Shown: in pieces, positions 44,245-64,000 of the stretch | Layout of the letters: each line of letters starts with the position of its first letter | Position numbering within the stretch: the first letter of the stretch is position 1 | Source of the DNA: Candidatus Omnitrophota bacterium | Lineage (GTDB): Bacteria > Omnitrophota > Gorgyraeia > S143-82 | Assembly (NCBI GenBank): GCA_015494465.1 | Contig: WGBD01000001.1 | Location: forward strand, 116,477-180,476 | Direction of reading: 5' to 3' | DNA length: 64,000 bases | Made by a program: the position numbers and the translations under genes | Notes under the pieces: generated by a model | Seen by the model: only the letters and a program-made list of their open reading frames with translations | The model's database searches: none | Told to the model about the DNA's origin: nothing

Positions 44245-44326
44245 TGCCGGGAGTGGGATTTGAACCCACACGGGTTGCCCCACACGCCCCTCAAACGTGC
44301 GCGTCTGCCAATTCCGCCATCCCGGC
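44245..44326 (-). tRNA. tRNA-Leu (anticodon GAG), type II
   Basis: Reverse complement GCCGGGATGGCGGAATTGGCAGACGCGCACGTTTGAGGGGCGTG...GTGGGTTCAAATCCCACTCCCGGCA. Anticodon stem is CACGU/GCGUG with loop UUGAGGG; CCA is not encoded. Confidence 0.75.
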
Positions 44327-44336
44327 TTGGTAAAAA

Positions 44337-44410
44337 TGGGCGGTAGAGGACTCGAACCTCTGACCTTCTGTACGTCAAACAGACGCTCTAACCAACTGAG
44401 CTAACCGCCC
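44337..44410 (-). tRNA. tRNA-Val (anticodon GAC)
   Basis: Reverse complement GGGCGGTTAGCTCAGTTGGTTAGAGCGTCTGTTTGACGTACAGAAGGTCAGAGGTTCGAGTCCTCTACCGCCCA. Confidence 0.85.
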
Positions 44411-44460
44411 AACTCTATAAGTTATACTAGAACCCAGGCTCTAAAGTCAAGGCGTAAAAA

Positions 44461-48597: not shown

Positions 48598-48598
48598 G

Positions 48599-49507
48599 TC
48601 AGACGACCTCCAACATCCTGTCTATAGACCTCTTTGCCTTGGAGATGATCTTCTCAGGCAACCTCACCTCGTACTTCTCTTCCAAAAGGGCCTCGTAAAG
48701 GCGTTCAAGCGTGGTCTCTTTCATTGTACGACAAACCGCCCTATCAGAGACAGGAATAAATTCCTTCTCCGGCAATTCTTTCTTTAAGCGGTACACCATT
48801 TCCCTTTCGGTAGCAACGATAAAGCGTCTCGCATCTGAGCGTTGCGCCCACTTGATCATGCCCGAGGTGGAGGCAATCGCATCCGCTAACTCCAACACCT
48901 CAGGAGGGCACTCGGGGTGAGCTATCACCTCCGCATCTGGGAACACCCGCTTTTTCTCCAGCACATCCTTGGGGTGGATCTCCTCGTGGACATAACAATA
49001 CCCTTTATCCCATATAACCATATTCTCCCGTTGGGTCTGCTTCTGGACATACATTCCTAGATTCCTATCGGGAAGAAAGACCACCGTTTTATTAGGGTCT
49101 ATTGCCTTTACCACCCGAACCGCATTCGCAGAGGTACAGCAAATATCCACTTCAGCCTTTATCTCTGCACTGGTATTGACATAGGCCACGAATTCCGCAC
49201 CTGGATACCGCTCACGCAATTGCCTTACATCCTCTACGGAGATGGTGTCTGCAAGAAAACAGCCAGCCCAAAGCGAAGGGATCAATACCTTGGCCTGGGG
49301 GGAAAGGACCTTAGCGGTCTCTGCCATGAACACCACCCCACAGAAGACTATAAGATCTGCGGATCTCTCCTTGGCTATCCTGCTCAATTCCAGAGAATCT
49401 CCCACCACATCTGCTAGATCCTGGATCTCTGGGAGCTGATAGTTGTGGGCCAAGATCAGGGCATTCTTTTCCTGCTTAAGCCTCAATATCTCTTTCTTTA
49501 GGTTCAT
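48599..49507 (-). CDS. nadA: quinolinate synthase
   Basis: LAHNYQ...conserved Cys ligands; 302 aa type NadA. Confidence 0.85.
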   Translation of the reverse strand: MNLKKEILRLKQEKNALILAHNYQLPEIQDLADVVGDSLELSRIAKERSADLIVFCGVVFMAETAKVLSPQAKVLIPSLWAGCFLADTISVEDVRQLRERYPGAEFVAYVNTSAEIKAEVDICCTSANAVRVVKAIDPNKTVVFLPDRNLGMYVQKQTQRENMVIWDKGYCYVHEEIHPKDVLEKKRVFPDAEVIAHPECPPEVLELADAIASTSGMIKWAQRSDARRFIVATEREMVYRLKKELPEKEFIPVSDRAVCRTMKETTLERLYEALLEEKYEVRLPEKIISKAKRSIDRMLEVV

Positions 49508-49510
49508 GGA

Positions 49511-50545
49511 CTACTCCCAAGGATAGGAGACCGATTCGATCTCACCACCAGCGACTATCTTATCCCCCTTGTAAATCACTACGTGCTGACCGGGGGCAAC
49601 ACCCAATTGCTTTTCTACAAACACCACCTCAAAACGATCCCCTTCTCTCACGACGCGAACCGGTACATCGGGTTGATTATACCTGATTTTGGCACTGGCC
49701 TCAAACTCCGATCTCTCCTCTAGATAAACACCTAATCTAGCGGTCAGTCTGCTGGCCATGGCCTCCTCTCTCTTGGCCACCACCACGGTCCTACTTTCCG
49801 GAACTATCCTTACCACATACCACGGACCTGGTTCCTTCAAAGAAAGACCCGACCGCTGTCCAGGCGTGTACATGAAGTATCCTCGGTGCTCTCCAAGCAC
49901 TCGACCTCGTATGTCCACAATCTTACCCGAAAAGTCCTTATCTCGCTCCAGCCCTGCCATGAGAAAGGCCTTATAATCCTTATCCCCGACGAAGCACAAA
50001 TCCTGACTTTCTCCCGAGGGCTTCAACCAAGGCACCCTCCCTCCGACATACCTTCTCACCCAGCCCTTATCCTTATCCCCTAACGGAAACAGGACATCGG
50101 AAAGTCCCGTAGGGATCAAGCGGTAAAGGAAGTAGCTCTGATCTTTTTTGAGATCCACACCCTTTGCTATAGTAGGCCTGCCCTCGTATTCTCCGATTCG
50201 GGCGTAATGTCCGGTAGCCACTGCGTCGAAGCCCAACTCCTCCTTTAGTCTCCTCAACCAATAGAACTTGAAGTCGACATTGCAGTTCACGCAGGGATTC
50301 GGGGTAAGTCCACTCAGATAGTAGTCCTTAAAACCGGCAACCACCCCACGATCGAAGGGCTCTTGCAAGGTATACACGGTAATGGGGATAAAAAAATACT
50401 GAGCTATCTTTTCAACGCGCTCTCTAACTGGACTGTTAAAACCGGTATCTAGGAAACAGGCATGAACCGTATGGCCCTGCTCCAACAGGAGGGCCACTAC
50501 TGCACAGGAGTCAATCCCCCCGCTCAGGCCCACTACCACCCTCAT
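49511..50545 (-). CDS. mnmA: tRNA-specific 2-thiouridylase
   Basis: [22 protein letters not shown]-loop; 344 aa. Confidence 0.85.
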
Positions 50546-51200
50546 ACTTGGTCAACCTGTGTTCAAGTTCTTCAATCCTCTTTTCGAGACGGTTTTGCTC
50601 CTTCATGAGCACCCGTATCACATCCGCTATAGGATCGGGTAACCTCCCGTGCTCCAGATCGATCTCTATCTGCTTTCGGCTACTGCGAATCTCCTGTACG
50701 ATCCTCCCCGGCACACCTACTACCGTCGCCCCCGGAGGGACATCTTTTATTACCACAGAACCCGATCCTATCTTCGCCCCTTCCCCAATCGTGATGTTGC
50801 CCAGGACTATCGCCCCAGCACCAATGACCACCCTATCCTTTACGGTGGGATGGCGCTTCGTCTTCTCCTTGCTCGTTCCGCCCAACACGACACCTTGGTA
50901 TATCAGGACATCGTCACCCACCTCCGCAGTCTCACCTATTACCACCCCCATCCCGTGGTCTATAAAGACCCGTCTCCCCAACTTGGCTCCAGGATGGATC
51001 TCTATACCGGTGAGGAATCGATTAATGTGGGACAGAAATCTGGCCAGGAACTTGAACCCGTGATTCCACAGCCAGTGTGCTATCCTGTGCATCCATATGG
51101 CGTGTAGCCCAGGGTAGCAAAACAGGACCTCTAATACACTACGGGCAGCGGGATCGTCGCGAAAGACGGTCTCGATGTCCTCGCGCAATCTACGGAACAT
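50511..51200 (-). CDS. cysE: serine O-acetyltransferase, with a charged C-terminal coiled-coil-like tail
   Basis: SAT N-terminal helical domain, then hexapeptide repeats ([41 protein letters not shown]). Confidence 0.8.
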
Positions 51201-51203
51201 GGA

Positions 51204-51491
51204 TCAGATGGCCACCACCTGTTTTATCCCAGGCACCATGTTCTTGAGGGACTGCTCTACGCCCATCTTGAGGGTCATGACCGAGAAGGGACAGGCACCA
51301 CAGGCTCCCAACAGTCTTACCTTCACCGTACCCTCGTCGTCCAGTTCCAGGAACTCTATATCTCCACCATCCATCTGGAGCGCTGGACGGATCTCTTTCT
51401 CTATGATCTCTTTCACCTTCTGTTCCAACTCTTCCCGATTAAGCTCTCTCTCCATCTTTTCCCTCCTTGACGCTGGCTTATCAGACATCAC
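51204..51491 (-). CDS. NifU-like (Nfu) Fe-S cluster scaffold domain protein
   Basis: ALQMDGGDIEFL...GACGACPFS (CxxC) Nfu C-terminal domain. Confidence 0.7.
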   Translation of the reverse strand: MMSDKPASRREKMERELNREELEQKVKEIIEKEIRPALQMDGGDIEFLELDDEGTVKVRLLGACGACPFSVMTLKMGVEQSLKNMVPGIKQVVAI

Positions 51492-51512
51492 CTTAACATA
51501 TTAGCACCTATC

Positions 51513-52226
51513 TCATAAGTTTCCAATCACCTCTTTCTGCTTGGCCAAGAGATCCTCGATCCCCTTTTGGGCTAGATCCAACAGCTCATCAAGGACCGAC
51601 CTGGTAAACCCCCCTCTCTCACCCGTCCCCTGCACCTCTATAAACTCCCTACCTTCAAATGCGACGACATTCATGTCTACTGTTGCCTGAGAATCCTCAG
51701 AGTACTCCAGATCCAATAGGAGCTGGCCCTCTACGACCCCAACGCTGATAGCGCTAACCACTCCTCGGAAGGTAAACTCTACAGGGTGACCTAACTGCCT
51801 TTCCAGGGCCTTAAGACACATGTATAAGGCGATCACTCCCCCGTTTATCCCCGCGGTGCGGGTACCACCATCGGCCTGTAAGACGTCCACATCGACATAT
51901 ATGGTCCTTTCTCCTATGTGTTCCAGGTCCACGCAGGCCCGTAGGCTCCGCCCTATCAACCTCTGGATCTCGAATGTCCTACCCGAGCCTGCAGACTTCT
52001 CCCTAGGGAGCCTGCCCAGCGTAGAGCCGGGCAACATCCTGTACTCGCAGGTCAACCACCCATTGCCCGTTCCTTTCAGAAAGTTGGGCACATCGTCGAT
52101 CCAGGTAGCGGTACACAATACCCGTGTCTTGCCCATACGGAACAAACAGGACCCCGGGGGATTGTCTAACCAGCCCGGGATAATCTCAACAGGTCGGACC
52201 TCATTCCAAGACCTGTCTACTCGCAT
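51513..52226 (-). CDS. rph: ribonuclease PH
   Basis: GSCLFRMGKTRVLCTA...LQADGGTRTA RNase PH signature; 237 aa. Confidence 0.85.
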   Translation of the reverse strand: MRVDRSWNEVRPVEIIPGWLDNPPGSCLFRMGKTRVLCTATWIDDVPNFLKGTGNGWLTCEYRMLPGSTLGRLPREKSAGSGRTFEIQRLIGRSLRACVDLEHIGERTIYVDVDVLQADGGTRTAGINGGVIALYMCLKALERQLGHPVEFTFRGVVSAISVGVVEGQLLLDLEYSEDSQATVDMNVVAFEGREFIEVQGTGERGGFTRSVLDELLDLAQKGIEDLLAKQKEVIGNL

Positions 52227-53110
52227 CTCTTCCCCTCCAGCTTTCGGCCGTAACCTGCCAGAAACTCCACGATCCCCATCCTCCGTTTACCTGCCGGCTG
52301 TACCTCCACCGGTAAGATCGCCCTATCGGCTGTACCTATCATCAATCCCTTTTTATCCACTACCACCTCACCCGGGGCCAGTCTTTGTTCGGCGATCTCT
52401 GCCCACCATATCTTCAGCTCTATCTCACCAATGATCGTCCATGCCCCCCAATAAGGTGAACCCGCCCTCACGAGGTTGTACACCCCTTCTGCAGGGGAAT
52501 TCCAATCTATCCTCAAAAGATCCCGATCAACCTTCCTGGCGTAAGAAGGCTCTCCCTCCTGCGGTCGATCCGTCGGCAAATCAGATCGAGAAAACACCTC
52601 GAGCAAGGCAGAGACAGCCTTCTCCGCCAAGGCCCTCTCCAAGTCTGCGTAAGACCATTGGATGGGAACCGAGACCTGCTCCTGGCGAACGATCCTGCCG
52701 GTGTCTATCCCCTCGTCCATCCAGAAGAGGCTAACACCGCTTTCCTTATCCCCGCTGCGGATGGTCCAAAAGATAGGCGCAGGGCCTCTCCACCTGGGGA
52801 GAAGGGAGGGATGCAAGTTAAGACAACGCCGTGTCCTTACTAGGTTTGGGGGGAAGATGAAACCTATGTCGCAGGCCACTATAAGGCCCTCCTCTTCAAG
52901 TAATACTCCTTCCGCGTCGATCCCGTCCAATTCCAGGACATCCAAGCGGTGCTCTAAACAGACCCGTTTTACCGGCAGGGGGCCTAGCCCCCCTCTAGGC
53001 AGCCTTCTATCGCCTAGGGTGTAGACGCGAGAGGGAGCCCTCCCACGCTCTAATATCCCCTGCAACACCCGGGCGCCAAACCTACCGCTGGAACAATACA
53101 CCCATCTCAC
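52217..53110 (-). CDS. fmt: methionyl-tRNA formyltransferase
   Basis: Formyl-transferase N-domain (NLHPSLLPRWRGPAPI) and Fmt C-terminal domain. Confidence 0.7.
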   Translation of the reverse strand: MRWVYCSSGRFGARVLQGILERGRAPSRVYTLGDRRLPRGGLGPLPVKRVCLEHRLDVLELDGIDAEGVLLEEEGLIVACDIGFIFPPNLVRTRRCLNLHPSLLPRWRGPAPIFWTIRSGDKESGVSLFWMDEGIDTGRIVRQEQVSVPIQWSYADLERALAEKAVSALLEVFSRSDLPTDRPQEGEPSYARKVDRDLLRIDWNSPAEGVYNLVRAGSPYWGAWTIIGEIELKIWWAEIAEQRLAPGEVVVDKKGLMIGTADRAILPVEVQPAGKRRMGIVEFLAGYGRKLEGKRCE

Positions 53111-54282
53111 AGCTGTGTCTCCCTCAATACCTCCTCCAGCGTAGTGAGTCCCATCTTCACCTTTCGCAGGCCATCTTCCCTCAACGAGACCATCCCCAGT
53201 TCCTTGGCCCTGCGGAACAACCCTTCTGTGGAGATCCTATCCAGAATAAGCGGATGCAGCTCCGTGCTTACCCCCAGAAATTCGAATATACCGATCCTGC
53301 CTCGATACCCGCTACCTCCACAGGCCTCACAGCCTACCCCTTTGAAGAACCGGCCCTCTCTGAGCTCGTCCTCATCAAGACCAAAGGCATCTATCTCCGC
53401 CTGGGTTGGTTCGTATACCTCTATGCATTGAGGACAAATCCTCCTTACCAATCTCTGGGCGATCACCGCCCTAAGGGTAGCAGTGATAAGGTACGGCTCT
53501 ATCCCCATGTCGATCAAGCGAGTAATCGCGCCGGGTGCGTTGTTGGTGTGCAGAGTAGAAAAGACCAGGTGTCCGGTCAGGGCGGAATGGATGGATATCT
53601 CCGCGGTCTCTCTGTCCCTTATCTCCCCTACCATTATTACATCTGGATCCTGACGCAATATCGTGCGCAATATCACTGCAAAGTCCAGTCCTATCTTGGG
53701 ATTTATCGGCACCTGAACCACACCTGGAAGATCGTATTCAATGGGGTCCTCTACGGTGATCAACTTCCTGTGTATCTGATTCAACTCCCTAAGGAAGGCG
53801 TACAAGGTCGTGGTCTTACCGCTCCCCGTAGGTCCGGTCACCAAGATCATGCCGTTGGTGAACTCGAGCAGGGACTGGTACAGGTGTATGTCCTCTTCCC
53901 AGATCCCAAGCTCCCCTAACTGTATGTCTATGTTGCCCTTATCCAATATCCGCAGTACCACGCTCTCACCAGTAACCGTGGGAAGGGTGGAGACCCTAAA
54001 GTCCACATCCTTACCGTTAATACGCATCCTTATTCGCCCATCCTGAGGGACACGATTCTCTGCCACATCCAAGCCTGCCAAGACCTTTATACGGGAAACG
54101 ATAGGGGAAAACAGCTCTTCCGGGGGGCTTGCTAGATCCCTCACGACGCCATCCACCCTTGCCCTTACCTTGAATCCTTCCGGAAAGACCTCGAAGTGGA
54201 CATCACTGGCCTTGAGCTCTACCGCCTCTGACAGGATAGCGTCCAACAACTGGACGACGGGTGCAGAAGCCCCTGCGCTCAT
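53107..54282 (-). CDS. GspE/PilB-family type II/IV secretion ATPase (short form with C-terminal tetracysteine Zn motif)
   Basis: Walker A GPTGSGKTT, Asp box, Walker B, His box; CPQC...CEACGGSGY. Confidence 0.75.
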   Translation of the reverse strand: MSAGASAPVVQLLDAILSEAVELKASDVHFEVFPEGFKVRARVDGVVRDLASPPEELFSPIVSRIKVLAGLDVAENRVPQDGRIRMRINGKDVDFRVSTLPTVTGESVVLRILDKGNIDIQLGELGIWEEDIHLYQSLLEFTNGMILVTGPTGSGKTTTLYAFLRELNQIHRKLITVEDPIEYDLPGVVQVPINPKIGLDFAVILRTILRQDPDVIMVGEIRDRETAEISIHSALTGHLVFSTLHTNNAPGAITRLIDMGIEPYLITATLRAVIAQRLVRRICPQCIEVYEPTQAEIDAFGLDEDELREGRFFKGVGCEACGGSGYRGRIGIFEFLGVSTELHPLILDRISTEGLFRRAKELGMVSLREDGLRKVKMGLTTLEEVLRETQL

Positions 54283-55322
54283 TGCACCTCTACGGGGTTC
54301 TCCTGGGTATAGTTGATAGCGGTTATCGGATACGGGATAACGATACCCTCGTCCTTGTACCTCTTGTGCAGGCGTTTTATGAATTCGTGAGTGATCAGAT
54401 ATCTATCCACGAAGGTCTTGCCCCGCAGGATCACCGTAAAGTTGATGCTAAAGTCCCCAAAGGTGTGATAGCGGATGAACGGATCGAACTCGGGCACCCC
54501 GCCAGGTACGGTCTGCATAACCTCCTTGGCCACCTCACAGGTAATCTTTTCGACCTTCTCCAGGTCACTGTTGTAATGCACGCCAACCTGCACCAACACC
54601 GCCAGATCACTGGAAGGCAACTCGTAATTTATGACCTTTGCCTGAGCAAGTTTGGAGTTGGGCACCAAGACCATGTTGTTGGGCAATTGTCGGATCTTGG
54701 TTACTCGCCAGCCTATGTCCTCTACGTATCCCTCTTCCCCGGAATCCAGCTTGATGTAGTCACCTACCTTTATGTGGTTATCCAAAGTAATGTACATCCC
54801 CGCAAAGAGATTCGACAGGGTATCCTGCAGGGCCAAGGCAACGGCCAAACCACCTATACCCAATGTGGTCAGCAACGGAGTAATGGAGATCCCGAGGTGA
54901 TTGAGGGCTATCAACACGCCCAGAAGGATGATAGTAAGCTTTACCACATTGGCAAACAACGAGCTTTTAGCGAAGAACTTATTTTCTTGACGATAATAGG
55001 CAAAGAGCCTATCCACTATGTTCACCAGTCCCCAGAAGAGCGAACCGATGAACAACACATACAATATCCTCTGCCCCAATTCTACTTGATTTGGTTTTAG
55101 CCCTATAAATGCCAAGGCAAAGGCAAGACCCCCAAGGATAAACCACAGGACAATCCAGCGTTTTATCTCCTCAAAGACCACATCGTCCCACACCGTTTTG
55201 GTCTTACCCACGAGCTTAAGCACGCGATTCACCACGATCCGCTTCACGATCATCCCTAATATCCACGAGAAGACCACGATGCCTGAAGACACGAGCATGT
55301 TTATCATCACCGCTTTATTCAT
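54279..55322 (-). CDS. MscS-family mechanosensitive channel
   Basis: Three TM helices with the pore helix GIGGLAVALALQDTLSNLFAG, followed by a beta-domain. Confidence 0.8.
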   Translation of the reverse strand: MNKAVMINMLVSSGIVVFSWILGMIVKRIVVNRVLKLVGKTKTVWDDVVFEEIKRWIVLWFILGGLAFALAFIGLKPNQVELGQRILYVLFIGSLFWGLVNIVDRLFAYYRQENKFFAKSSLFANVVKLTIILLGVLIALNHLGISITPLLTTLGIGGLAVALALQDTLSNLFAGMYITLDNHIKVGDYIKLDSGEEGYVEDIGWRVTKIRQLPNNMVLVPNSKLAQAKVINYELPSSDLAVLVQVGVHYNSDLEKVEKITCEVAKEVMQTVPGGVPEFDPFIRYHTFGDFSINFTVILRGKTFVDRYLITHEFIKRLHKRYKDEGIVIPYPITAINYTQENPVEVQ

Positions 55323-55998
55323 TCTCGGCTACCTCCCATTCAGCCACCCATCCCTCTGGTAACACCACTCCCCCTGAGACGACGGCCTGCAAGGCAGACT
55401 CTACACTTACATCCAAAGCGATAACTTCGTCCTTTCTCACGAACTCCAGGAATCCCGTCAAAGGACTAGGGGAAGTAGGGACGAACACCGCAACGAAAAC
55501 CTCACCCTCTTTCGACGGCAGATGGACCCCGTCAGAGCTCAAGAAAGCGATAGAATACATGCCCTTTCGGGGGTATTCTATCAAGACGACCCTGCCCCAC
55601 TTCTTCTCCTGCTGTTGGAAAAAGTACTGAGCAATCCTTTTTAGAGAGGAATATATCCTGCCCACCAAAGGCAGGCGTTCTACCCAATGCTCGAAAAAGG
55701 CCATTATGCGCCGGGCGAGGAAGTTCTGGACCAGCAGACCCACGAAAAAGATCAACACCAAAGACAAAACTATACTCAACCCCGGGACCTCAAAGCCCAG
55801 TGCCAGACGGACCAACGAGTTGAGGTACCTACCTATAGCCACATCGATGAGCTTAAATATCAGACCGATAACATATATAGTCAACACTACCGGCGTAACG
55901 ACCGCCAATCCTGAGATAAAGTACCTTCGCCAGCGACTCATCCACATAACCCGATTTACCTCTCCTTTAGCAATTGCTTTACCCAATCGAGTTCCCAA
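55315..55998 (-). CDS. DUF502-family membrane protein
   Basis: Two N-terminal TM helices plus the conserved DUF502 core; the true start is probably the internal MSRWRRYF. Confidence 0.55.
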   Translation of the reverse strand: MGTRLGKAIAKGEVNRVMWMSRWRRYFISGLAVVTPVVLTIYVIGLIFKLIDVAIGRYLNSLVRLALGFEVPGLSIVLSLVLIFFVGLLVQNFLARRIMAFFEHWVERLPLVGRIYSSLKRIAQYFFQQQEKKWGRVVLIEYPRKGMYSIAFLSSDGVHLPSKEGEVFVAVFVPTSPSPLTGFLEFVRKDEVIALDVSVESALQAVVSGGVVLPEGWVAEWEVAENE

Positions 55999-57536
55999 TC
56001 GTATATCCCGTTCTTCTTCAAGACCTTGCTCACGTAACCGTCGGTTATAGCGTCCAGATCCGACCTCAACCGCTGTATCCTATAAAGCAGATCGAGTAGT
56101 TTTGCTACATCCTTTGGCGGAGACAACACCAAACGGGTCTGGAGCTTTCGCCTCTCGAAGTAAGTCTGATTGACCTGATCAAGGATGTCATCTCTCAATT
56201 CTACCGTAAGTTTGGACCTGGTATCAATCGAGATCTCCTCTTTGGACCAGACCAACTCTTTGAGATCCCACTCCAGCGATATCCCAAAGTCCCCTGAAGA
56301 GTAAACCGTCTTATCGTCTGGACCGACATTTGAGTTGCCGTAAGAAGATACCGCAACCGAATCGGAAACTGACCTACTACCACTCAGATCCACATCCAAA
56401 GACACCTTGGGTAAAAGCGCTCTTTTCCTAACCGCCTCTCGCCAGGCAATTATCTTCTCAGGGCTGACCTCTGCTACCTGCATAGCAACTTCTTGGATCT
56501 CGTCTATTGCCGGTTCCTGCGCAAACATCCTCCACAAGAAGAGCATCCTATCCCCGTTAGGCGAGGCAGGAGACACCGTCTGAATGCGCCTTACATACAA
56601 TCGACGCGAGCTACACACCAAGGCATAGGACCCCCTAAAGTCTCCGGAATAGATGTCTAGATCCTCCAGGCCCTGGTCATCTGACTCTCCCGAATAGACC
56701 AAGAAAACACCTTCGTTTCCGTAGGCTATCGCCTCCTCGGGGAAAAGCAGCCCCCTAAGTTCACCAGGATAATCAAAGACCTTTTTACTGCCTTCCTTCT
56801 CATCGACCATCCACACCGCTTTACCCCTAGCGAACAAGACCTTCCGTTGGTCCCAGATGACCTGATTCCCCTTGTAGGGGACTGTCTCCGAATCCGGTAT
56901 CCAACTTTCCTCGTACACCGGCTCCCAACTTCCAAGATCTACGACGATTATGCGATCCTTTGTCAATACAGCTAGGCGATCTCCAGAAGAAGAGACTTCC
57001 AGATCAAGCACACCCCTAGCAGTGAAGACCCGATCCCAGTGGGATCCATCTGTCGAGCGGTATACCCCCTCTTTTGTCCCTATCAATAGGGAACCTCTGC
57101 CCCCGCCGACGCAGGTGACGAGCTTTCCCGGTGGAGAGAACACCCTCTTTGCCCTCTTCTTCTCCTGCCCCAGCTCCACCACGAATAATCCCAAAGAAGA
57201 GGCCCAATACAGCCTGCCCCTCCACACCAACGCATCGTACACCCCTAGATCTTCTCCTCCCCTCAACCTGCACAGCCTAAAGGCACCGGAATCCCGTAGG
57301 CACCAAACATAGTTCTTATCAAACAGATAAGCCTCCCCCCCAGGGCCCAAACGCACTAACCTAATGGGAGTACCATTCCAAGGAAGAGGTAGCCAATCAC
57401 CGAGGAGAACCGAGGCAAAGGAGAGGAAAAGGATCAGAGACAATCCTAATCTTCCCACGCTAACCTGTCCCCCACTTCTAAGCCCCAACGCGAGGCACTT
57501 CCACCCGCTACCTCCAACACATAAGAGGCCGACCAC
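55956..57536 (-). CDS. hypothetical exported protein with BNR/Ycf48-like beta-propeller repeats
   Basis: N-terminal hydrophobic segment; repeated motifs resembling Asp-box/BNR (VYRSTDGSHWDRV); 526 aa. Confidence 0.4.
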   Translation of the reverse strand: MVGLLCVGGSGWKCLALGLRSGGQVSVGRLGLSLILFLSFASVLLGDWLPLPWNGTPIRLVRLGPGGEAYLFDKNYVWCLRDSGAFRLCRLRGGEDLGVYDALVWRGRLYWASSLGLFVVELGQEKKRAKRVFSPPGKLVTCVGGGRGSLLIGTKEGVYRSTDGSHWDRVFTARGVLDLEVSSSGDRLAVLTKDRIIVVDLGSWEPVYEESWIPDSETVPYKGNQVIWDQRKVLFARGKAVWMVDEKEGSKKVFDYPGELRGLLFPEEAIAYGNEGVFLVYSGESDDQGLEDLDIYSGDFRGSYALVCSSRRLYVRRIQTVSPASPNGDRMLFLWRMFAQEPAIDEIQEVAMQVAEVSPEKIIAWREAVRKRALLPKVSLDVDLSGSRSVSDSVAVSSYGNSNVGPDDKTVYSSGDFGISLEWDLKELVWSKEEISIDTRSKLTVELRDDILDQVNQTYFERRKLQTRLVLSPPKDVAKLLDLLYRIQRLRSDLDAITDGYVSKVLKKNGIYDWELDWVKQLLKER

Positions 57537-57802
57537 ACCGGCCAGAGCATAATTCGACCAGGAGGATAGTTAGGGAGGATGCGGACGATTCGACCTTGGG
57601 AATCCAAAAAGATCACATCTATTGGGAAACGCATGCCAAGCGTGTGAATCATGTTGCAATCCGGGAAGAGCAATCCTTCCTCGTAAGAAAGGTGATGCCT
57701 GGACAACAACCCAATAAGTCTCTTCCAAAAAGAGCGGGCAACCTTCAGCTTGGTCAGTAATACCGAATTATCCCCCCTTCTTATTAATCTCATAAAAGAC
57801 AT
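57446..57802 (-). CDS. DUF192-family protein
   Basis: LLFPDCNMIHTLGMRFPIDVIFLD matches the DUF192 (COG1430) core. Confidence 0.55.
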   Translation of the reverse strand: MSFMRLIRRGDNSVLLTKLKVARSFWKRLIGLLSRHHLSYEEGLLFPDCNMIHTLGMRFPIDVIFLDSQGRIVRILPNYPPGRIMLWPVWSASYVLEVAGGSASRWGLEVGDRLAWED

Positions 57803-59981
57803 CCTTTGGCGTAAATACGGACTTGTCTAACTTGATCCCCCGTCGCAACATCTCGTCGTAAAAACTGGGGATGTACCCAGTAGCGGTAAACTCTCCTAAT
57901 ATTCTCCCATCCTCATCTACGCCCGTCTGGACGAACACAAAGACATCTTCCATCCTAACGGTCATCATGTCCTCTTCCAGACCGGTCAATTCCGATATCT
58001 TCATGACCTTCCTAGAGCCATCGCTCAACCTAGCGGTATGGACCACGACATCTATGGCCGAGGCGACCATCTCCCTTATCGCCCGGATGGGCAGTTCCAC
58101 CCCACTCATGAGGATCATAGAGTCCAATCGGGCGATGACATCTTGAGGAGAATTGGCGTGTACCGTGGTCAGGGATCCGTCGTGTCCGGTGTTCATGGCC
58201 TGAAGCATGTCTAATGCCTCTACACTTCGGCACTCGCCTATGATTATTCTATCCGGCCGCATCCTTAATGTATTGCGAAAGAGGTCGCGTATAGTTATTT
58301 CACCTTTACCCTCTATATTTGGAGGCCTGCTTTCCAACCGCACCCAGTGCTCCTGGTGAAGCCTAAGCTCTGCTGCATCTTCAATGGTCACGATCCTTTC
58401 GTGGTCCGGTATGAATTGGGAAAATGCATTCAAGACCGTGGTCTTACCCGAGCCAGTCCCTCCGGATATTACCATGTTCTTCCTGGCGATAATACAGGCC
58501 TTTAAGAACTCTGCCATCTCTGGGGTCAGGGTGCCAAAGCGGATGAGATCTTGTGCGGTATACCGCTCCTTGCCAAACTTACGAATCGTAAGCATCGGGC
58601 CATTCAGGGAAAGGGGAGGGATGATCGCGTTGACCCTGGAACCGTCCGGCAAGCGCGCGTCCACCATTGGAACCGACTCGTCAATTCTCCTACCCAAAGG
58701 CGCGATGATACGCTCTATTATCTGCACGACCTGCTCGTTGGATATAAACTTTTTATCCTCCACCTTCTGCAGTTTCCCAAACTTTTCGATGTAAATCTGA
58801 TCCTTGTTGTTGACCATTATGTCGGTGATGTCGGGATCCTTGAGGAGGTCCTCCAGTGGGCCAAATCCTAAGGCCTCGTCTGCTATCTCCTTCACCAGCC
58901 TAGCCCGAATCTCGTAGTCCTCTAAGGATCCCCCCAACTCCTCTGCCAATATCTCCCCAATCATCCGCTCGGTATTCGCCCTCAGCTCGTGCCTTGCAGA
59001 GGTCTCTATCTTCAAGAAGTCCAATTTGCGTAGCTCCATCCTCTCCACCAGCTTCAAGTGCACCCGCTTTTTGAGGCTGACGACCTCGTCCACCTGTTCC
59101 TTCTTCTCCACATCCGACTCAAACCCATACTCTCGCCAGAAAGACACCAGGGCAGAGACCTCTTCTTCCTCTACCTCCACATCGGATAAGCTCCTCTTGG
59201 GCACATAAAGGTCTTCATCCTTTAGCAGGAGTTCAGCCAATCTGGTAACCGCCATACCCACCTTACTGTTGGGCTCGTACATCACGACCGGGATACCAAA
59301 ATTCAGGGCCTCTCCTACCACCCGTCCTTCACTAGGGATCTGGGCTATTATGTCCAGAGGAAGGATCGTCTTTATCTCCTTAAGACCCACACCTCCTTTA
59401 CTTGCAGACCTATTGAGGACTCCCTTCACTAGCTCTTTAGGGAGAAACAGTCCTGCTAATGTGCTCAACATCTCCTTTGATTGGTAAACGGAAAGCAAAT
59501 CAGGCAATACCACATCTATTACCAGATTAGCCAGATCCAAGAGCTTAGCCGAAAACCCCACCAAGTTATGACCGCCATCTACGACCACGAAGTCGTACAG
59601 TTCACCTAGCCTCTTGAGAAGATGGCGAGGGTCTACCCGCTCCAGCAAGGGCAGATCCCCAGGCTTCAGGATTACGGGGATGTACTCTAACTTAGAATTG
59701 TGCTGTAGCCTGTATTCAGAGAAATACCTGCTCAACTTCTCTAGGGATACATCTGGGCTGAGATCCTGATGATCCACATAAAAGTTGAGGAAAGAGCGGG
59801 CAGGGAAAAGCCCCAGCAATCTCGCAGGATCGCCAACTATCGGTAGGCTAGAATCTATCAAGAGGACTCTGGCACCGGATAACGAGAGAGCAACCGCGGT
59901 ATTCGTGGCCAGGAACGATACGCCTACCCCGCCCTTAAAGCTAAAGAAATAGACGAACTTGGCCATCTCACTGGAAGACAA
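57768..59981 (-). CDS. fused CpaE/TadZ-like (MinD/ParA-fold, atypical Walker A) and CpaF/TadA secretion ATPase
   Basis: N-terminus SFKGGVGVSFLATN has a deviant Walker A lacking the catalytic Lys/Thr, as in TadZ. The C-terminal 400 aa are a VirB11/CpaF ATPase (GGTGSGKTT Walker A, IIGECR, GHDGSLTTVHA His box). Confidence 0.75.
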   Translation of the reverse strand: MSSSEMAKFVYFFSFKGGVGVSFLATNTAVALSLSGARVLLIDSSLPIVGDPARLLGLFPARSFLNFYVDHQDLSPDVSLEKLSRYFSEYRLQHNSKLEYIPVILKPGDLPLLERVDPRHLLKRLGELYDFVVVDGGHNLVGFSAKLLDLANLVIDVVLPDLLSVYQSKEMLSTLAGLFLPKELVKGVLNRSASKGGVGLKEIKTILPLDIIAQIPSEGRVVGEALNFGIPVVMYEPNSKVGMAVTRLAELLLKDEDLYVPKRSLSDVEVEEEEVSALVSFWREYGFESDVEKKEQVDEVVSLKKRVHLKLVERMELRKLDFLKIETSARHELRANTERMIGEILAEELGGSLEDYEIRARLVKEIADEALGFGPLEDLLKDPDITDIMVNNKDQIYIEKFGKLQKVEDKKFISNEQVVQIIERIIAPLGRRIDESVPMVDARLPDGSRVNAIIPPLSLNGPMLTIRKFGKERYTAQDLIRFGTLTPEMAEFLKACIIARKNMVISGGTGSGKTTVLNAFSQFIPDHERIVTIEDAAELRLHQEHWVRLESRPPNIEGKGEITIRDLFRNTLRMRPDRIIIGECRSVEALDMLQAMNTGHDGSLTTVHANSPQDVIARLDSMILMSGVELPIRAIREMVASAIDVVVHTARLSDGSRKVMKISELTGLEEDMMTVRMEDVFVFVQTGVDEDGRILGEFTATGYIPSFYDEMLRRGIKLDKSVFTPKDVFYEINKKGG

Positions 59982-61527
59982 AGGGCAAGTCTAACCAGAC
60001 TACATCCAGATCCGTACCCTCTGGCAAAGGCGGAAGAGGTTGAATGTCTCGGGCGATGTTCAATGCTATGCGCTCGAGTCTCTTGTCCCCCGGTGACTCC
60101 TTTATGACGACATTCTCAACGCTCCCATCCTCTCGCACCTTCAGGCTTACCACCACCTTACCTTTCGCGTCCACAAGGGGATACCTCCTCAGCTCCTCTC
60201 TCACCTTTCGTAACACATACTTGGCATAATCCTCTATATCCTTAATGGCAGGTCCATCTTCGCCATCTTGACTCGATCCCGCCGCCTTTCCCGCCTTATA
60301 CTCCGATACTTCTCCCACATCTCCTTGGGATACAAGTCCCAGAATCTCCGGGGTAATGGTAATCACCAATTCGGTCTCGGAAGAGGTGATGTCTTTAGAC
60401 CTGAAGAACTCGCCTATTATCGGCAGTTTCGACAAACCGAATAAGGCAGATCTGTTCTCCCCTTTCTTTCTCTGCAACAATCCCCCTATCACCACCGTTT
60501 GGCCGTCCTTCAGCGTAATCTCTGTCTCCGCCTGGCGGGAAACAAATGCCGGTACCGAATAAACTGCATTGGTGGTATCCGTAGCGATGTTAACCGTAGT
60601 AGAGTGCACAGGGTCTATGTCTGAAACCTCACACTTTATCTTGAGGTCCAGGCCTTCGCGAATTATGGTCGGCGTCATGTCCAATATCACCCCGTAAGGT
60701 TTATACTCCACACTGGCGGTATTATCCTCGTAAGTGACGATCGGTATCTCTCCTCCTACCACTATCTTGGCGGGCTTACCATTTGCGGCCATTATGTTTG
60801 GCCGGGCCAAGACCTTACCCTTGTGATTGGTCTCCAAGGCCCTTATCAATATAGACAAGTCGTTCCTCTCCCATATGTTAAACCTAATAGCCCCTCGGGA
60901 AAAGGGAAGACCATTGCCTGACTCATCCTCAACATCTTGTCCTATAGCGGTAAGGCGCAACTCTTGAGGCCAGGAGATGCCAAATCCCTTATTGAGGTCC
61001 GTACCCACCTCCAGCACATTTAGAGATAACCTGATACTATCCTTTACACTTGCCTCGTGGACCAGGTTTACCAACACCTGACTACCCAAAGCGCTTACCG
61101 CTTGTTCCACCCTATTCATCTCCTCATGGCTAAAGACCGTACCGCTGAGAAGGAGCAGTCCACTTTCTTTATCTAGTTTGAGGCTCACCTTTTTATCCAA
61201 TCCCAGTGCAGAGAGAATCCTTTTCAGTTTCTTGTACTGGAGCTCCACATCCTCCTCCCACACCACCACCTCGTATTTTCTCTCTTGTCCATCTGAGCCC
61301 ACAATTACTAGATCCGTCCGCCCGGATTCCTTTCCCGTGAGCAAAACATCCGTCTCGTCCACAGTAACATCCAGGACCGCTGGATTGGAAATAGATATCT
61401 GGGTAGGGACCTCCTCTAGCTTGAGGGGAACCGTCTCACCCTTAACGAGGTACAAGACCCCTGCTTGAGCAAAAGGAGCCATAAGGAAAAATAATCCAAT
61501 CACCCCCGCACAGAGACGGGAAATCAT
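59968..61527 (-). CDS. secretin (CpaC/RcpA-like) with a C-terminal TonB_C-like domain
   Basis: Signal peptide, N-terminal BON/pilus-formation-like domain, and secretin core (ARPNIMAANGKPAKIVVGGEIPI...GLSKLPIIGEFFRSK...ELVITITPEI). The C-terminal ~90 aa (YVLRKV..YPLVDAKGKVVVSLKVREDGSVENVVIKESPGDKRLERIALNIARDIQPLPPLPEG) resemble a TonB C-terminal domain. Confidence 0.7.
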   Translation of the reverse strand: MISRLCAGVIGLFFLMAPFAQAGVLYLVKGETVPLKLEEVPTQISISNPAVLDVTVDETDVLLTGKESGRTDLVIVGSDGQERKYEVVVWEEDVELQYKKLKRILSALGLDKKVSLKLDKESGLLLLSGTVFSHEEMNRVEQAVSALGSQVLVNLVHEASVKDSIRLSLNVLEVGTDLNKGFGISWPQELRLTAIGQDVEDESGNGLPFSRGAIRFNIWERNDLSILIRALETNHKGKVLARPNIMAANGKPAKIVVGGEIPIVTYEDNTASVEYKPYGVILDMTPTIIREGLDLKIKCEVSDIDPVHSTTVNIATDTTNAVYSVPAFVSRQAETEITLKDGQTVVIGGLLQRKKGENRSALFGLSKLPIIGEFFRSKDITSSETELVITITPEILGLVSQGDVGEVSEYKAGKAAGSSQDGEDGPAIKDIEDYAKYVLRKVREELRRYPLVDAKGKVVVSLKVREDGSVENVVIKESPGDKRLERIALNIARDIQPLPPLPEGTDLDVVWLDLPFVFQ

Positions 61528-62813
61528 AAGCCTCCCCCTTTTATTGGTCTGTATCTCTCGAAAGGAGAAATCAATTCATCCTCACTCTCGCTTAATCTCT
61601 CCTCGAATTCCTTCCCTTCTTCGGACTCTTTCTCCTCCGTGGATCTTACCTCTGTCCCTTCCTCCTCATCCTTCTGCTCTCCAGATCCCTCTTCGCTCGT
61701 CAAGAGGGCCTTCTTAAACATGGACAAGATCTTTTGGCCCATCTCTTTATCCCTGCTCTCCCTGACTTGGGGAATACTTTCCCTGTCCGGTCTTTCGGTC
61801 TCCCCTTTTAGGAGAATCTCCTTCACTTCCACGACCCCACCTTTTCTTATCTTTATGGTACGGGTAGCAGGCTTGGGAGCAACTCTTTGCCCCATAAGCT
61901 GTAGGGCCTGCTTCGCCTTCTCGGCTTGCTCCTTTGCCTTTGCCATCTCGCTCGCCTGCTTCAGCAGTTCCGGGATTGCATACTGGAGCACTGCATCAAC
62001 AGTAACAGGAGGGATCCTCGTCTCGTCTGTGTCCAGACGCGAACGAGGGAATATCCTTATGCTCCCCAATTGAGAGGCCATGAGCAAGATTGCAGCGTCC
62101 CTAGGGGGTAAAGCGAAGGTCAAAGTCCCTTGATTAGGATTAAATGGAACCCTCTCTTTGCCCTCGTCGTCCCTCCTTTTTCTTATACTTCTCGAACTCT
62201 CTTTCCCTTTAGGGCCTCTACTTGCGTAAAAGACGCCATTTACTGCCTTTATCTCCACATTGGAAAACAGACCAGCGGTCACCATCTGGGAGGGCGGGAG
62301 ATTGAACATCAAAGCGATGTCCACCTTGTCACCTGGCTTTATAAATCTAAACAGGTCGAGCTGTTGGACCTGCACCGTAACCAGGCGTCTACCCAGAGGA
62401 ATGACCTGCCGGCGCAGGACATCGGGAGAGACCAACCTGGGCATCAATACCTGCTCTCCCTTAACTAGATCAACCGTTACTAGTTTCCCTATCACCGCAT
62501 CCAGAGACCCCGCAGAGGCAGGCAACTTCCGGGAGCGAGGGACCATTATCTCCTCCACCATCTCCGAGGTAAGGATGGTCCCTGCCTTGATGTCTTCCTT
62601 CGCCACCACCACCGGCACCTTTGCCTCTACCCGTTTGGTCGCGGTCATCCGCCTCAATTCGTCACTTAACCTCTGAAGCTGTTGCTGTTGTTGATATAGC
62701 CGTTGTTGCAAGATCATCGCCCGCTGGCGTTCCCTCTGGAAATAGACATAGGCGATCGAGGCAGCCAATATACCCGAAACGATGGCGAGAATTAATGGAA
62801 GGTTTCTACCCAT
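61524..62813 (-). CDS. cpaB: CpaB/RcpC-like Flp pilus assembly protein (TM, SAF domain) with a long acidic Lys/Glu-rich C-terminal tail
   Basis: N-terminal TM LILAIVSGILAASIAYVYF, SAF-like VPVVVAKEDIKAGTILTSEMV, RcpC-like beta region; the last ~110 aa are low-complexity E/K-rich. Confidence 0.6.
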   Translation of the reverse strand: MGRNLPLILAIVSGILAASIAYVYFQRERQRAMILQQRLYQQQQQLQRLSDELRRMTATKRVEAKVPVVVAKEDIKAGTILTSEMVEEIMVPRSRKLPASAGSLDAVIGKLVTVDLVKGEQVLMPRLVSPDVLRRQVIPLGRRLVTVQVQQLDLFRFIKPGDKVDIALMFNLPPSQMVTAGLFSNVEIKAVNGVFYASRGPKGKESSRSIRKRRDDEGKERVPFNPNQGTLTFALPPRDAAILLMASQLGSIRIFPRSRLDTDETRIPPVTVDAVLQYAIPELLKQASEMAKAKEQAEKAKQALQLMGQRVAPKPATRTIKIRKGGVVEVKEILLKGETERPDRESIPQVRESRDKEMGQKILSMFKKALLTSEEGSGEQKDEEEGTEVRSTEEKESEEGKEFEERLSESEDELISPFERYRPIKGGGL

Positions 62814-62878
62814 TAGCCCTCTCCTTTACCCCCCACTCGAATCAACCGTTAACGCTCATCTATATTTTAAGGGGGAAT

Positions 62879-64000
62879 TTACAAATTTTCAAAATGTTTC
62901 TCTATGGAAGATTCATAATGCGATCTCACAGAATCCACTATCTTCTTTATTCTCTCTGCGTTTTCAAGGTCTTTATATGCCCGTTCCAACGCCTGCCTGA
63001 GCTGCGCAGGCAACTCTTCCCAACTGACAAGCGAATATTTCTTTTCCTTGGGTAAAAAGAAAAGATATACTTTATCCCCAATAGCAAGTCTCACCGGATC
63101 AGACCCTACCGGAACAGAGGAAATAAGATTAAAATACGCATTTATTTCCTCCAGTCTCTGCTTAATCTTCCTCTTTTCTCCTTCATCCTTGGCATCCGCT
63201 AATCTAGCCTGTAAATCCTGCAACTCTTTCACAAGAGATGCGGTACTGACGCGCTCTACATATGCTGGCCCCATTGTCTCTCTGGCAACGCTTCTGAAGG
63301 CCTCTTTAGCATCGCCATTATTCTGCGCTTTCTCCTGATAAAAACGCCCCATTACCGCATCCGCCTGAGAAGACGAATCAACCTCTATCTTCCATATGGT
63401 TGTCCTCCAATCCACCATATAATCGAGGATTGGAAATCCCAAACGGGTAGCAATCTTGGCCAATTCCGTATTAAGGAAATTCTCATAATTTGGGGAGTTG
63501 GATTCTAAATCCATTCGCAGGGCATCCAGTGCCCGATTATACATATCCCTGACATCATCCTCAGCTACTTCCGTGGTACTTCCTTCCTCCTGAAGCATTT
63601 TATTCGTAGAAAGCATTAAACCATAAATCTTCTGCATTGACTTTACATCCGGATACTTATTATATCCTCGTTCTATAGCGGCAACTGCAGCCAGCATACT
63701 CTTAACAAACTCGTCGTACACGGACTTTTTCTTATCTTCCGGCAACCCGAGAAAAGAGTCCTTAGCACTATCAGGAGGAACATTTGCATTCAAGGCATAC
63801 CAAGCGTAAAAATCGTCTACTGTAAATGTATAGGGACCTACTTTTAATGCTATTTTATCGGCTGGCAGAGAAGTGGACGATCCTTTTGCTGAGGGAGATG
63901 TTGCAGAAGAGACCGATTGTTCCACATTACTCTGGGTGCCTAAAACACCTTTATCGGCATTTTTGCCACACCCCCCAAGAACGAAAAGGATCGGCAAGAA
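62879..64000 (-). CDS. putative lipoprotein, hypothetical (5' end possibly beyond the window)
   Basis: Lipobox LFVLGGCGK at the N-terminus with C at the +1 position. The upstream hydrophobic signal region runs to the window edge. K/E/N/S-rich, and about 43% GC versus about 57% for the flanks. Confidence 0.5.
   Translation of the reverse strand, partial: FLPILFVLGGCGKNADKGVLGTQSNVEQSVSSATSPSAKGSSTSLPADKIALKVGPYTFTVDDFYAWYALNANVPPDSAKDSFLGLPEDKKKSVYDEFVKSMLAAVAAIERGYNKYPDVKSMQKIYGLMLSTNKMLQEEGSTTEVAEDDVRDMYNRALDALRMDLESNSPNYENFLNTELAKIATRLGFPILDYMVDWRTTIWKIEVDSSSQADAVMGRFYQEKAQNNGDAKEAFRSVARETMGPAYVERVSTASLVKELQDLQARLADAKDEGEKRKIKQRLEEINAYFNLISSVPVGSDPVRLAIGDKVYLFFLPKEKKYSLVSWEELPAQLRQALERAYKDLENAERIKKIVDSVRSHYESSIEKHFENL

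Follow-up and report, generated by a model that had tools for sequence, protein, structure and literature searches.

A rearranged Tad pilus locus of Omnitrophota that is probably one half of a split system

The Omnitrophota bacterium contig WGBD01000001.1 carries, within the 64,000-nt stretch that we analysed (the window), a locus at 53107-64000 that we consider likely to be the envelope-and-motor half of the Omnitrophota Tad (Flp) pilus machine, still used and with the remainder supplied from elsewhere. Pilin and platform genes are missing from the window, and the locus is thus not a new machine but a rearranged version of an adhesion pilus already known from Omnitrophota and Bdellovibrio.

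The locus is an unbroken run of nine co-directional genes on the minus strand (Table 1), as an earlier note on this DNA had described; its coordinates are exact in the list of open reading frames, and Pfam and NCBIfam profiles were used to assign the families. From cpaB down to fmt and rph, each gene in that list overlaps or abuts the next, and the sole gap, where 65 nt separate the lipoprotein gene from cpaB, leaves no space for hidden small genes. The family matches of CpaB, the secretin and TadZA also bear out the view of the locus as Tad/Cpa-type with fused components.

Table 1. Genes of the run, with the matches or features on which the assignments rest
Product	Position	Strand	Match or feature
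Lipoprotein	62879-64000	minus	lipobox LGGC; 5' end cut by window edge
CpaB/RcpC periplasmic ring protein	61524-62813	minus	TIGR03177 5e-28, PF16976 6e-11, PF08666 3e-10
Secretin + TonB_C	59968-61527	minus	PF00263 5e-41, PF13629 5e-12, PF03544 3e-8, TIGR01352 1.5e-11
TadZA (TadZ-TadA fusion)	57768-59981	minus	CbiA 1e-7 + T2SSE 1e-62
DUF192 (COG1430)	57446-57802	minus	PF02643 4e-22
526-aa ORF, exported beta-propeller	55956-57536; likely gene 55956-57458	minus	homologues + AlphaFold
DUF502 membrane protein	55315-55998	minus	PF04367 2e-31
MscS-family mechanosensitive channel	54279-55322	minus	PF00924, PF21088, PF21082
Truncated PilB/GspE-type ATPase	53107-54282	minus	T2SSE 6e-131

About 8-10 5' codons of the lipoprotein gene lie off the window. 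The protein itself has no match in Pfam or NCBIfam; its sequence can be aligned to the opening gene of each related Tad locus, with an invariant Cys, and those opening genes carry Rotamase/SurA_N Pfam matches. Judged from these alignments, it is a divergent PpiC/SurA-like (PrsA-type) lipoprotein and the first gene of the module. CpaB/RcpC combines SAF and RcpC domains with an N-terminal TM helix (residues 2-26) and a K/E-rich C-terminal extension of ~170 aa that is specific to the clade, in which the protein measures 392-429 aa compared with 281-294 aa in sister lineages. The secretin is RcpA-type, with a T2SS-T3SS_pil_N domain (PF13629) and a TonB_C-like C-terminal domain at residues ~432-518; all the Omnitrophota-type loci that we examined have this fusion, which was seen in Omnitrophota loci only.

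TadZA consists of a ParA/MinD-like TadZ domain (residues ~8-250) with a Walker-A-like KGGVGVS, a linker, and a CpaF/TadA motor ATPase (residues ~330-720) whose motifs are intact (Walker A GGTGSGKTT, Asp box, Walker B and His box). Over residues 332-717 the protein matches structures of CpaF (PDB 9e24, 5e-120), and there is a further match to the ParA-family structure 3ea0 (9e-10). In the database copy the protein starts 5 codons later, at ATG 59966. The named relatives among the matches listed are Omnitrophota TadA proteins of ~720 aa, and true fusions of 716-754 aa are found in Bdellovibrionota/Oligoflexia beside flp, cpaB and tadB; in one of these cases a secretin was detected as well. Indeed, a TadZA fusion has already been described for B. 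bacteriovorus (bioRxiv 10.64898/2026.07.08.737194). Since TadZA occurs across Omnitrophota and Bdellovibrionota, the fusion is not a local event, and by these comparisons the fused components are features of the whole lineage rather than signs of local remodelling.

The comparison with sister lineages shows where the window departs from the usual arrangement. Their loci run from the lipoprotein through CpaB, the secretin with TonB_C, TadZA and DUF192 into 5-9 Flp pilins, TadE/TadG-like genes and TadB plus TadC. Five complete loci (L005, L006, L008, L011 and L096) open with the same five core genes as the window, followed by 5-9 Flp-like genes (GQSTxEY motif) and by TadE-like and TadG-like (PF13400) genes; T2SSF genes number two in L008 and one in L006, where it is cut by the locus end. 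In the clade of the window, which comprises four genomes (the window, L010, L002 and L007), the Tad locus stops after DUF192, and the propeller and DUF502 genes come next. The earlier suggestion of a remodelled secretin-based system therefore holds insofar as the locus breaks off, by truncation or splitting, precisely after DUF192, but not for the fusions, which are lineage-wide. The gene right after DUF192 in L005 and L006 is HTH_32 (transposase-like), which marks this junction as a recurrent insertion site.

The earlier note implied that DUF192, together with the propeller and DUF502, fills slots of the platform. All four clade genomes have DUF192, and so do 9 of the 10 sister Omnitrophota-type loci having sequence downstream of TadZA. 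Its regular place is after TadZA and before the Flp pilins, in loci that have TadB/TadC too, which speaks against such a role; it also occurs in a locus with unfused TadZ, TadA, TadB and TadC. The protein is small and cytoplasmic, has no signal peptide and matches PDB 3m7a and 3pjy, both of unknown function. That the sister loci share both the fusions and DUF192 indicates that both are standard for the Omnitrophota Tad locus, and from this recurrence DUF192 can be regarded as a conserved accessory gene of it.

No Flp pilin or TadB/TadC gene was found anywhere in the window. Searches of it by tblastn with pilin, TadE/TadG-like and T2SSF queries from the related loci returned DUF192 only, and Flp and T2SSF HMMs built from control loci gave no match in its six frames (best E 0.39 and 2.1, respectively), while the Flp HMM matched 49 times in the control loci. 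These searches extend to the whole window the earlier observation that the run lacks a pilin, a prepilin peptidase and TadB/TadC. Likewise, the window plus ~80 kb from the other three clade genomes yielded no gene for a pilin, TadE/F/G, TadB/C or an A24 peptidase. The clade was absent from the returns of two collection scans.

The edge of the window falls within the lipoprotein gene that opens the module, and canonical flp-tadV-tadBC genes could accordingly lie immediately upstream, just past 64 kb, as the earlier note had considered. We regard this as very improbable. L010 and L002 are syntenic with the window over the nine genes and onward through fmt, rph, cysE, mnmA and nadA, and the next eight genes upstream of their lipoprotein gene encode a weak LolA-like protein, YggT, ProC, RibE, RibD, PHP, a class-Ib tRNA synthetase and NYN. 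These housekeeping genes in two syntenic relatives show that the missing genes should not be expected shortly past 64 kb; furthermore, complete Omnitrophota-type loci have pilins and TadB/TadC downstream of TadZA/DUF192 and never upstream of the lipoprotein gene. A different proposal is that the clade lost Flp and TadB/TadC altogether and that CpaB, the secretin and TadZA act with the propeller and DUF502 as a different, platform-less secretin-based device for export or uptake, the two additional proteins being co-inherited. The absence of pilin and platform genes from all clade DNA searched fits this proposal, as does the conservation of a seven-gene block, from the lipoprotein to DUF502, in all four clade genomes, which is intact in L007 despite different flanks on both sides. 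The 71% identity of DUF502 in the window and L010 fits it as well, and so do the gene overlaps from cpaB to DUF502, but these overlaps continue into fmt and rph and are thus a sign of genome compactness, not of a functional unit. The propeller family occurs in housekeeping contexts in other Omnitrophota (among thiamine/thioredoxin/pta-ack genes in L009 and L093), and DUF502, with two hydrophobic segments (residues 25-57 and 62-96), has no detectable similarity to T2SSF (HMM E 4.4), so that a place for either in the platform is not supported. Moreover, within the type IV filament superfamily no CpaF-type motor is known to work without a T2SSF platform, and we consider such a device unlikely.

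The half module might also survive because it works with parts (pilins, platform, peptidase) of a T4aP/T2SS-like system from another locus, to which the short ATPase would belong. This PilB/GspE-core gene, found 3.5 kb downstream, is conserved in L010 and L002 (81-83% identity); T4aP genes are reported to be common in several Omnitrophota classes (PMC10066038), and in B. bacteriovorus the T4aP and Tad machines both use PilD (bioRxiv 10.64898/2026.07.08.737194). However, Tad/T4aP sharing is documented for the peptidase only, not for platforms or pilins, and the window contains no PilC, PilA or PilMNOQ genes. The ATPase, described earlier as GspE-like and as a second ATPase of the system, does match T2SSE strongly and PilB/GspE structures at 1e-119 to 1e-121, but it comprises only N2 and the C-terminal core with a CPQC...CEAC zinc site; it lacks the N1 domain and covers GspE model positions 106-486 with a score of 548 bits, under the cut-off of 630. 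Only clade members have this short form. In L007 it is on another contig than the Tad module, which has other neighbours there, and lies between VWA/LptFG and fmt, directly upstream of the latter. Being unlinked from the module yet with fmt, it is a neighbour that stays with fmt and not a Tad component, and we give little credence to a T4aP/T2SS partner. MscS, which follows DUF502 in the window, L010 and L002 and is absent there in L007, is a neighbour as well and not a Tad component.

Of the remaining two genes, the 526-aa ORF had been called a BNR-propeller. The fold is supported by homologues, which carry BNR/PSII_BNR/Sortilin-Vps10 matches, and by an AlphaFold model with a beta-propeller at residues 23-291 (pLDDT 79) that resembles WD40, Ycf48 and BamB propellers in Foldseek (~1e-10). 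The ORF has no significant BNR match of its own (only CNH, E 0.002), and alignment of homologues moves the likeliest start to GTG 57458, giving 500 aa with a signal-peptide-like N-terminus. The C-terminal domain, helical with a beta-hairpin, is highly conserved. From these features, the product is an exported BNR/Ycf48-like beta-propeller. In L002, L007 and L010 it follows DUF192 and is followed by DUF502. The two genes accompany the Tad module in this clade only and are clade-specific passengers whose relevance to the Tad machine is uncertain. The pair stays with the module in L007 although both flanks differ. This may point to a functional tie, which the split reading would treat as incidental, and so counts against that reading.

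From these comparisons, a split Tad system of the kind known from Bdellovibrio appears to us most likely, and we infer that the genes for pilins and platform exist elsewhere in the clade genomes. Between the window and L010, the Tad proteins (TadZA 74% identity, also 68% to the L002 orthologue; DUF192 59%; CpaB 53%; secretin 45%) are conserved to the level of housekeeping proteins (RNase PH 71%, NadA 68%, Fmt 49%, MnmA 45%), which we read as purifying selection and which suggests that they are probably still in use. In the split system, TadZA would energise pilus extension and retraction on the TadB/TadC platform, its TadZ part being a positioning ParA/MinD-like domain on the CpaF/TadA motor; RcpC would connect this platform with the secretin, which would let the Flp fibre out; and pilins, platform and prepilin peptidase would come from at least one other locus. 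Scattered Tad genes have a precedent in B. bacteriovorus, where tadC occupies a locus of its own, the rcpA-tadA module is duplicated, TadV is absent and PilD is shared between systems (bioRxiv 10.64898/2026.07.08.737194). TFFscan permits multi-locus Tad systems, although Denise et al. call them 'very rare' (PMC6668835), which counts against the split reading.

The closest known system is the Omnitrophota Tad complex, e.g. the Velamenicoccus archaeovorus LiM locus CP019384.1:12382-29832 (Seymour et al. 2023, PMC10066038), known here by description, from the same phylum and with the same core genes as the window. The full layout, as we observed it in L005, L006, L008, L011 and L096, comprises RcpC, an RcpA-type secretin with TonB_C, TadZA, DUF192, Flp arrays, a TadG-like gene and TadB/TadC, whereas the window clade ends after DUF192, without linked pilins, TadE/G or TadB/TadC. 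In that study Tad presence was scored by TadB/TadC/RcpA, with no mention of CpaF or a secretin and with TadZ named solely among the KEGG reference orthologues; the TadB/TadC proteins of Omnitrophota reportedly cluster with their Bdellovibrionales counterparts (PMC10066038). The B. bacteriovorus system resembles the window in having TadZ (ParA/MinD-like; consensus K/RGGXGXS/T, bioRxiv 10.64898/2026.07.08.737194), linker and TadA in one polypeptide, and we also count as a likeness that its Tad genes are dispersed over several loci, with no TadV in the tad loci. Unlike in the window, flp genes precede cpaB and tadB directly follows tadZA in Bdellovibrionota loci, and our own queries detected no DUF192, secretin TonB_C tail or PpiC-like lipoprotein in them.

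The Tad-like Kil system of Myxococcus xanthus is reportedly encoded in two separate clusters. This apparatus of a predatory bacterium from another lineage (PMC8460266) is likened to the window by description only. In the canonical Tad/Cpa loci, A. actinomycetemcomitans flp-tadV-rcpCAB-tadZABCDEFG and Caulobacter cpa (PMC6668835 and general knowledge), RcpC/CpaB, RcpA/CpaC, TadZ/CpaE and TadA/CpaF are homologous to the window proteins, but TadZ and TadA are separate genes rather than fused, TadZ has an N-terminal receiver-like domain that the window TadZ lacks, and the TadD pilotin is found in place of the PpiC-like lipoprotein. Canonical Tad parts usually stand in one locus, whereas that of the window clade holds half of them.

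Domain searches agreed with the gene list that the earlier note had given for this region, and recovered nine co-directional ORFs on the minus strand (table). Judged against the TXSScan/TFFscan model (PMC6668835), an RcpA secretin, an RcpC/CpaB protein and a TadA/CpaF-type ATPase are all present, residues 332-717 of the last matching CpaF structures. The ATPase shares its ORF with an N-terminal TadZ/CpaE-type domain (CbiA/ParA/MinD matches) without a receiver-like domain, i.e. it is a TadZA fusion of the Bdellovibrio bacteriovorus type, with KGGVGVS at residue 16 and a Walker A motif at residue 507. The atypical Walker A of the TadZ domain conforms to K/RGGXGXS/T and all nucleotide-binding and catalytic motifs of the fusion are intact. 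Among the matches listed, the MinD plus T2SSE architecture is found throughout, and those database relatives that carry names are 'TadA' proteins from Omnitrophota, about 720 aa long.

Genes and features of the Tad region, in the order of transcription
Product	Positions	Strand	Evidence or remark
Lipoprotein	62879-64000	-	lipobox LGGC; 5' end cut by window; aligns with first genes of related loci
CpaB/RcpC	61524-62813	-	TIGR03177 5e-28
CpaB C-terminal extension	61524-62030	-	~170 aa, K/E-rich, low-complexity
Secretin with C-terminal TonB_C	59968-61527	-	PF00263 5e-41; PF03544 3e-8
MinD/ParA-like domain + CpaF ATPase, 737 aa	57768-59981	-	PDB CpaF 5e-120
DUF192	57446-57802	-	PF02643 4e-22
Exported protein, 526-aa ORF	55956-57536	-	beta-propeller by model and homologues' domains
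DUF502	55315-55998	-	PF04367 2e-31
MscS	54279-55322	-	PF00924, PF21088, PF21082
T2SSE ATPase, 391 aa	53107-54282	-	T2SSE 6e-131

The Tad loci of sister Omnitrophota lineages (L005, L006, L008, L011, L012 and L094-L097), whose TadZA proteins are 50-56% identical to that of the window, begin with a PpiC/SurA-like lipoprotein, CpaB, a secretin with a TonB_C tail, TadZA and DUF192. There, DUF192 is followed by five to nine small genes with an Flp signature (…GQSTxEYA… and then a hydrophobic helix), a TadE-like gene, a TadG-like gene (PF13400) and two T2SSF genes (TadB and TadC), both complete in L008. Since these loci carry the same fusions together with DUF192, both belong to the normal make-up of the Tad locus in this lineage; the fused components pointed out earlier are real, but they do not indicate local remodelling. 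In L008, a 9,075-aa ORF (17992-19167 onward) starts shortly after tadC and a gene of 113 aa, a position that agrees with published reports of giant Omnitrophota genes adjoining pilus genes.

True TadZA fusions, as single ORFs of 716-754 aa, also occur in Bdellovibrionota/Oligoflexia; in these loci the flp genes stand before cpaB and tadB stands after tadZA. A 2026 preprint describes an 'atypical TadZA hybrid' in B. bacteriovorus, the TadZ-linker region of which interacts with the polarity hub RomR (bioRxiv 10.64898/2026.07.08.737194). Tad complexes have been reported in Omnitrophota by Seymour et al. 2023 (PMC10066038), who found that their TadB/TadC group with those of Bdellovibrionales. The TadZA fusion is common to the Omnitrophota and Bdellovibrio Tad systems, and bears on their shared ancestry.

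The absence of pilin and platform genes remarked on in the earlier note proved real for the whole window, as judged by tblastn and by Flp and T2SSF HMMs. Within the 64 kb, TadB/TadC were found neither by tblastn nor by a T2SSF HMM built on nine sequences (best E 2.1), a result that holds for the locus and not for the genome. Neither a regular expression nor an HMM built on 37 pilin N-termini matched an Flp pilin in the six frames of the window (HMM best E 0.39), while control loci gave 37 regex matches and 49 ORFs by HMM; tblastn for TadE/TadG-like proteins likewise returned nothing from the window, both again being results at the level of the locus. When the products of all genes lying beyond DUF192 in three related loci served as tblastn queries, the 64 kb were matched only at DUF192. 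Elsewhere in the window, the genes look like those for housekeeping and envelope functions. One of them, at 20081-20827 on the minus strand, encodes a protein with the C-terminal sequence VPEPASGLLLALGLALIGIPRRR, a PEP-CTERM-type sorting signal, and adjoins genes that by eye encode a glycosyltransferase, an O-antigen-ligase-like protein and a polysaccharide deacetylase.

No prepilin peptidase (TadV/CpaA), a component that can have its gene at a separate site, was found in a Pfam scan of the nine proteins, and nothing like a peptidase-type membrane protein was seen when the rest of the window was inspected by eye. Complete Omnitrophota Tad loci and the tad loci of B. bacteriovorus (bioRxiv 10.64898/2026.07.08.737194) lack Peptidase_A24 too, so that its absence here says little.

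Four genomes carry the block lipoprotein-CpaB-secretin/TonB_C-TadZA-DUF192-propeller-DUF502 without pilin or platform genes: that of the window and three relatives forming a clade with it, L010 (GCA_053939365.1), L002 (GCA_054040295.1) and L007 (GCA_964469495.1), with TadZA proteins 74%, 68% and 62% identical to that of the window, respectively. TadB/TadC are lacking from the loci of all three relatives and from a further clade locus, L091, and our comparisons suggest the same arrangement in five or six further clade members. Scans of genome and metagenome contigs with TadZA gave, among the matches listed, best identities of 51-53%, none of them from a clade member. In the clade, CpaB is 392-429 aa long, compared with 281-294 aa in the sister lineages.

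The clade breaks off from the standard order exactly at the junction of DUF192 and the pilin genes. At this same junction, directly after DUF192, two of the sister loci contain transposase-like genes with HTH_32 domains (L005 13289-14854; L006 12496-13377), suggesting that it is a spot prone to rearrangement. The proteins concerned, of 521 aa in L005 and 293 aa in L006, were compared with the window propeller and proved not to be homologues of it.

The CpaF of Caulobacter is a motor with two functions and, going by what is established for Tad systems, TadZA hexamers would drive polymerisation and depolymerisation of Flp on a TadB/TadC platform. The periplasmic ring of RcpC would line up this platform with the secretin (PMC12307814), and the fibre would leave through the RcpA channel. 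More speculatively, the role of the pilotin TadD, known from Pseudomonas (PMC10499894), may fall to the TonB_C tail together with the PpiC-like lipoprotein. Between the window and L010, proteins of the Tad module (TadZA 74%, DUF192 59%, CpaB 53%, secretin 45% identical) can be set beside housekeeping proteins (RNase PH 71%, NadA 68%, Fmt 49%, MnmA 45%), and the genes of the half-locus are, judging by such sequence comparisons, under purifying selection.

Since we know of no function for a CpaF motor without a platform, we consider it probable, by analogy with B. bacteriovorus, that the pilins, TadB/TadC and the peptidase are encoded elsewhere. In that species the tad loci are dispersed and the prepilin peptidase is borrowed from the T4aP system (bioRxiv 10.64898/2026.07.08.737194). 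The remaining probability is divided between a remodelled device without a platform, joint use with components of a different type IV filament system, and genes lying just upstream. The last of these had been put forward in the earlier note, and is made very unlikely by L010 and L002: their synteny with the window extends as far as nadA, and their upstream genes are of housekeeping type (a weak LolA-like gene, yggT, proC, ribE, ribD, PHP, a tRNA synthetase and a NYN protein). The upstream gene of 271/274 aa in these relatives was examined as a candidate prepilin peptidase and rejected, its only match being a weak one to LolA_like. As for another filament system, the window does hold a second ATPase of the PilB/GspE family, though this protein has no N1/GSPII domain, no T2SSF gene accompanies it in the window and its conserved neighbour is fmt, which does not fit membership of a T2SS or T4aP system. 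A remodelled device would mean that the clade discarded Flp pilins and TadB/TadC and kept, under purifying selection, the operon lipoprotein-RcpC-secretin-TonB_C-TadZA-DUF192, permanently joined to the propeller and DUF502, as a CpaF-driven secretin machine without a T2SSF platform; we regard this as improbable, and prefer the reading in which the other half is encoded at a distance.

Tad pili are leading candidates for the attachment of ultra-small Omnitrophota to host or prey cells, and where the two halves of the system are unlinked, a genome can be misclassified by surveys in which 'Tad present' rests on co-located genes, or on TadB/TadC together with RcpA. Should the pilin and platform genes be absent altogether, the clade would provide a natural experiment on a secretin and CpaF motor alone, and proof that complete clade genomes lack T2SSF and Flp genes would sharply raise its interest. 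The Tad family in Omnitrophota and the TadZA fusion in Bdellovibrio are already known, and the locus, unusual in the arrangement of its genes, is the expected system in the expected phylum. The novelty is modest: in one clade the secretin/motor genes are no longer linked to those for pilins and platform, DUF192 regularly accompanies Tad motors, and the clade has a PilB-like ATPase of its own, which lacks N1 and is tied to fmt.

DUF192 (COG1430) is near-constant in the sister-lineage loci, and in a further related locus, L100, it lies at 5704-6078, after an unfused tadZ-tadA-tadB-tadC set. We found no link between DUF192 and pili in the literature. The window copy has no signal peptide, and DUF192 may serve Tad motors as a cytoplasmic accessory factor that has so far gone unrecognised; for a family of unknown function, this steady companionship provides a testable context.

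The exported protein that follows, described earlier as a BNR propeller, probably starts at GTG 57458, giving 500 aa with a hydrophobic N-terminus. A propeller is supported by the structural model and by the BNR/PSII_BNR/Sortilin matches of its homologues, and not by a Pfam match of the protein itself. By far its most conserved part is a C-terminal domain of 200 residues, a helical bundle with a beta-hairpin for which no informative structural neighbour was found. The family occurs across Omnitrophota; its neighbours in the related loci L009 and L093 are thiamine, thioredoxin and pta-ack genes. In L007, the propeller and DUF502 remain joined to the Tad block despite differing flanks on both sides, and the two may have a clade-specific functional link to it.

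Only the window, L010 and L002 have MscS and the short ATPase after DUF502. The assignment of the short ATPase to the GspE/PilB family was right, but it is not a full-length protein: it consists only of the N2 domain and the C-terminal core, with a tetracysteine zinc site (CPQC...CEAC), covers only positions 106-486 of the GspE model and scores under the NCBIfam cut-offs (548 vs 630; 518 vs 676). Its closest full-length relatives, of 560-575 aa and with PF05157, are ordinary PilB/GspE proteins, and the short form is confined to the clade, about 14 members of which have copies sharing 66-100% identity. The Walker motifs and the zinc site are intact in the window copy and in those of two further clade loci (L091 10001-11176; L092 5915-7090). 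In every clade locus examined the gene lies directly upstream of fmt with a 4-nt overlap, even where other neighbours have changed, and no platform or pilin gene was found beside it. In the L007 genome, a convergent 1,037-aa gene follows the Tad block and the short ATPase is on a different contig, flanked by VWA/LptFG and fmt, indicating that the conserved pair is ATPase-fmt and not ATPase-Tad.

In the window, fmt, rph, cysE, mnmA and nadA come directly after the nine genes. Neighbouring ORFs within the nine-gene run abut or overlap by 4-35 nt, and as the genes from fmt to nadA are packed equally tightly, such packing is a property of the genome and no evidence for one functional unit. A scan of 51-64 kb for promoters and terminators gave counts at the level of shuffled sequence (9 vs 10.9; 12 vs 11.2), uninformative on operon structure, and an Rfam scan of the window matched only tRNAs and no riboswitch. 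The sole gap in the run, 65 nt between the lipoprotein gene and cpaB, contains one -35/-10-like site and a good ribosome-binding site ahead of the cpaB ATG. GC skew is uniformly and strongly negative (about -0.1 to -0.3) across all 20 kb of 44000-64000, without any break in composition where the Tad genes lie, and fits the near-total minus-strand orientation of the genes.
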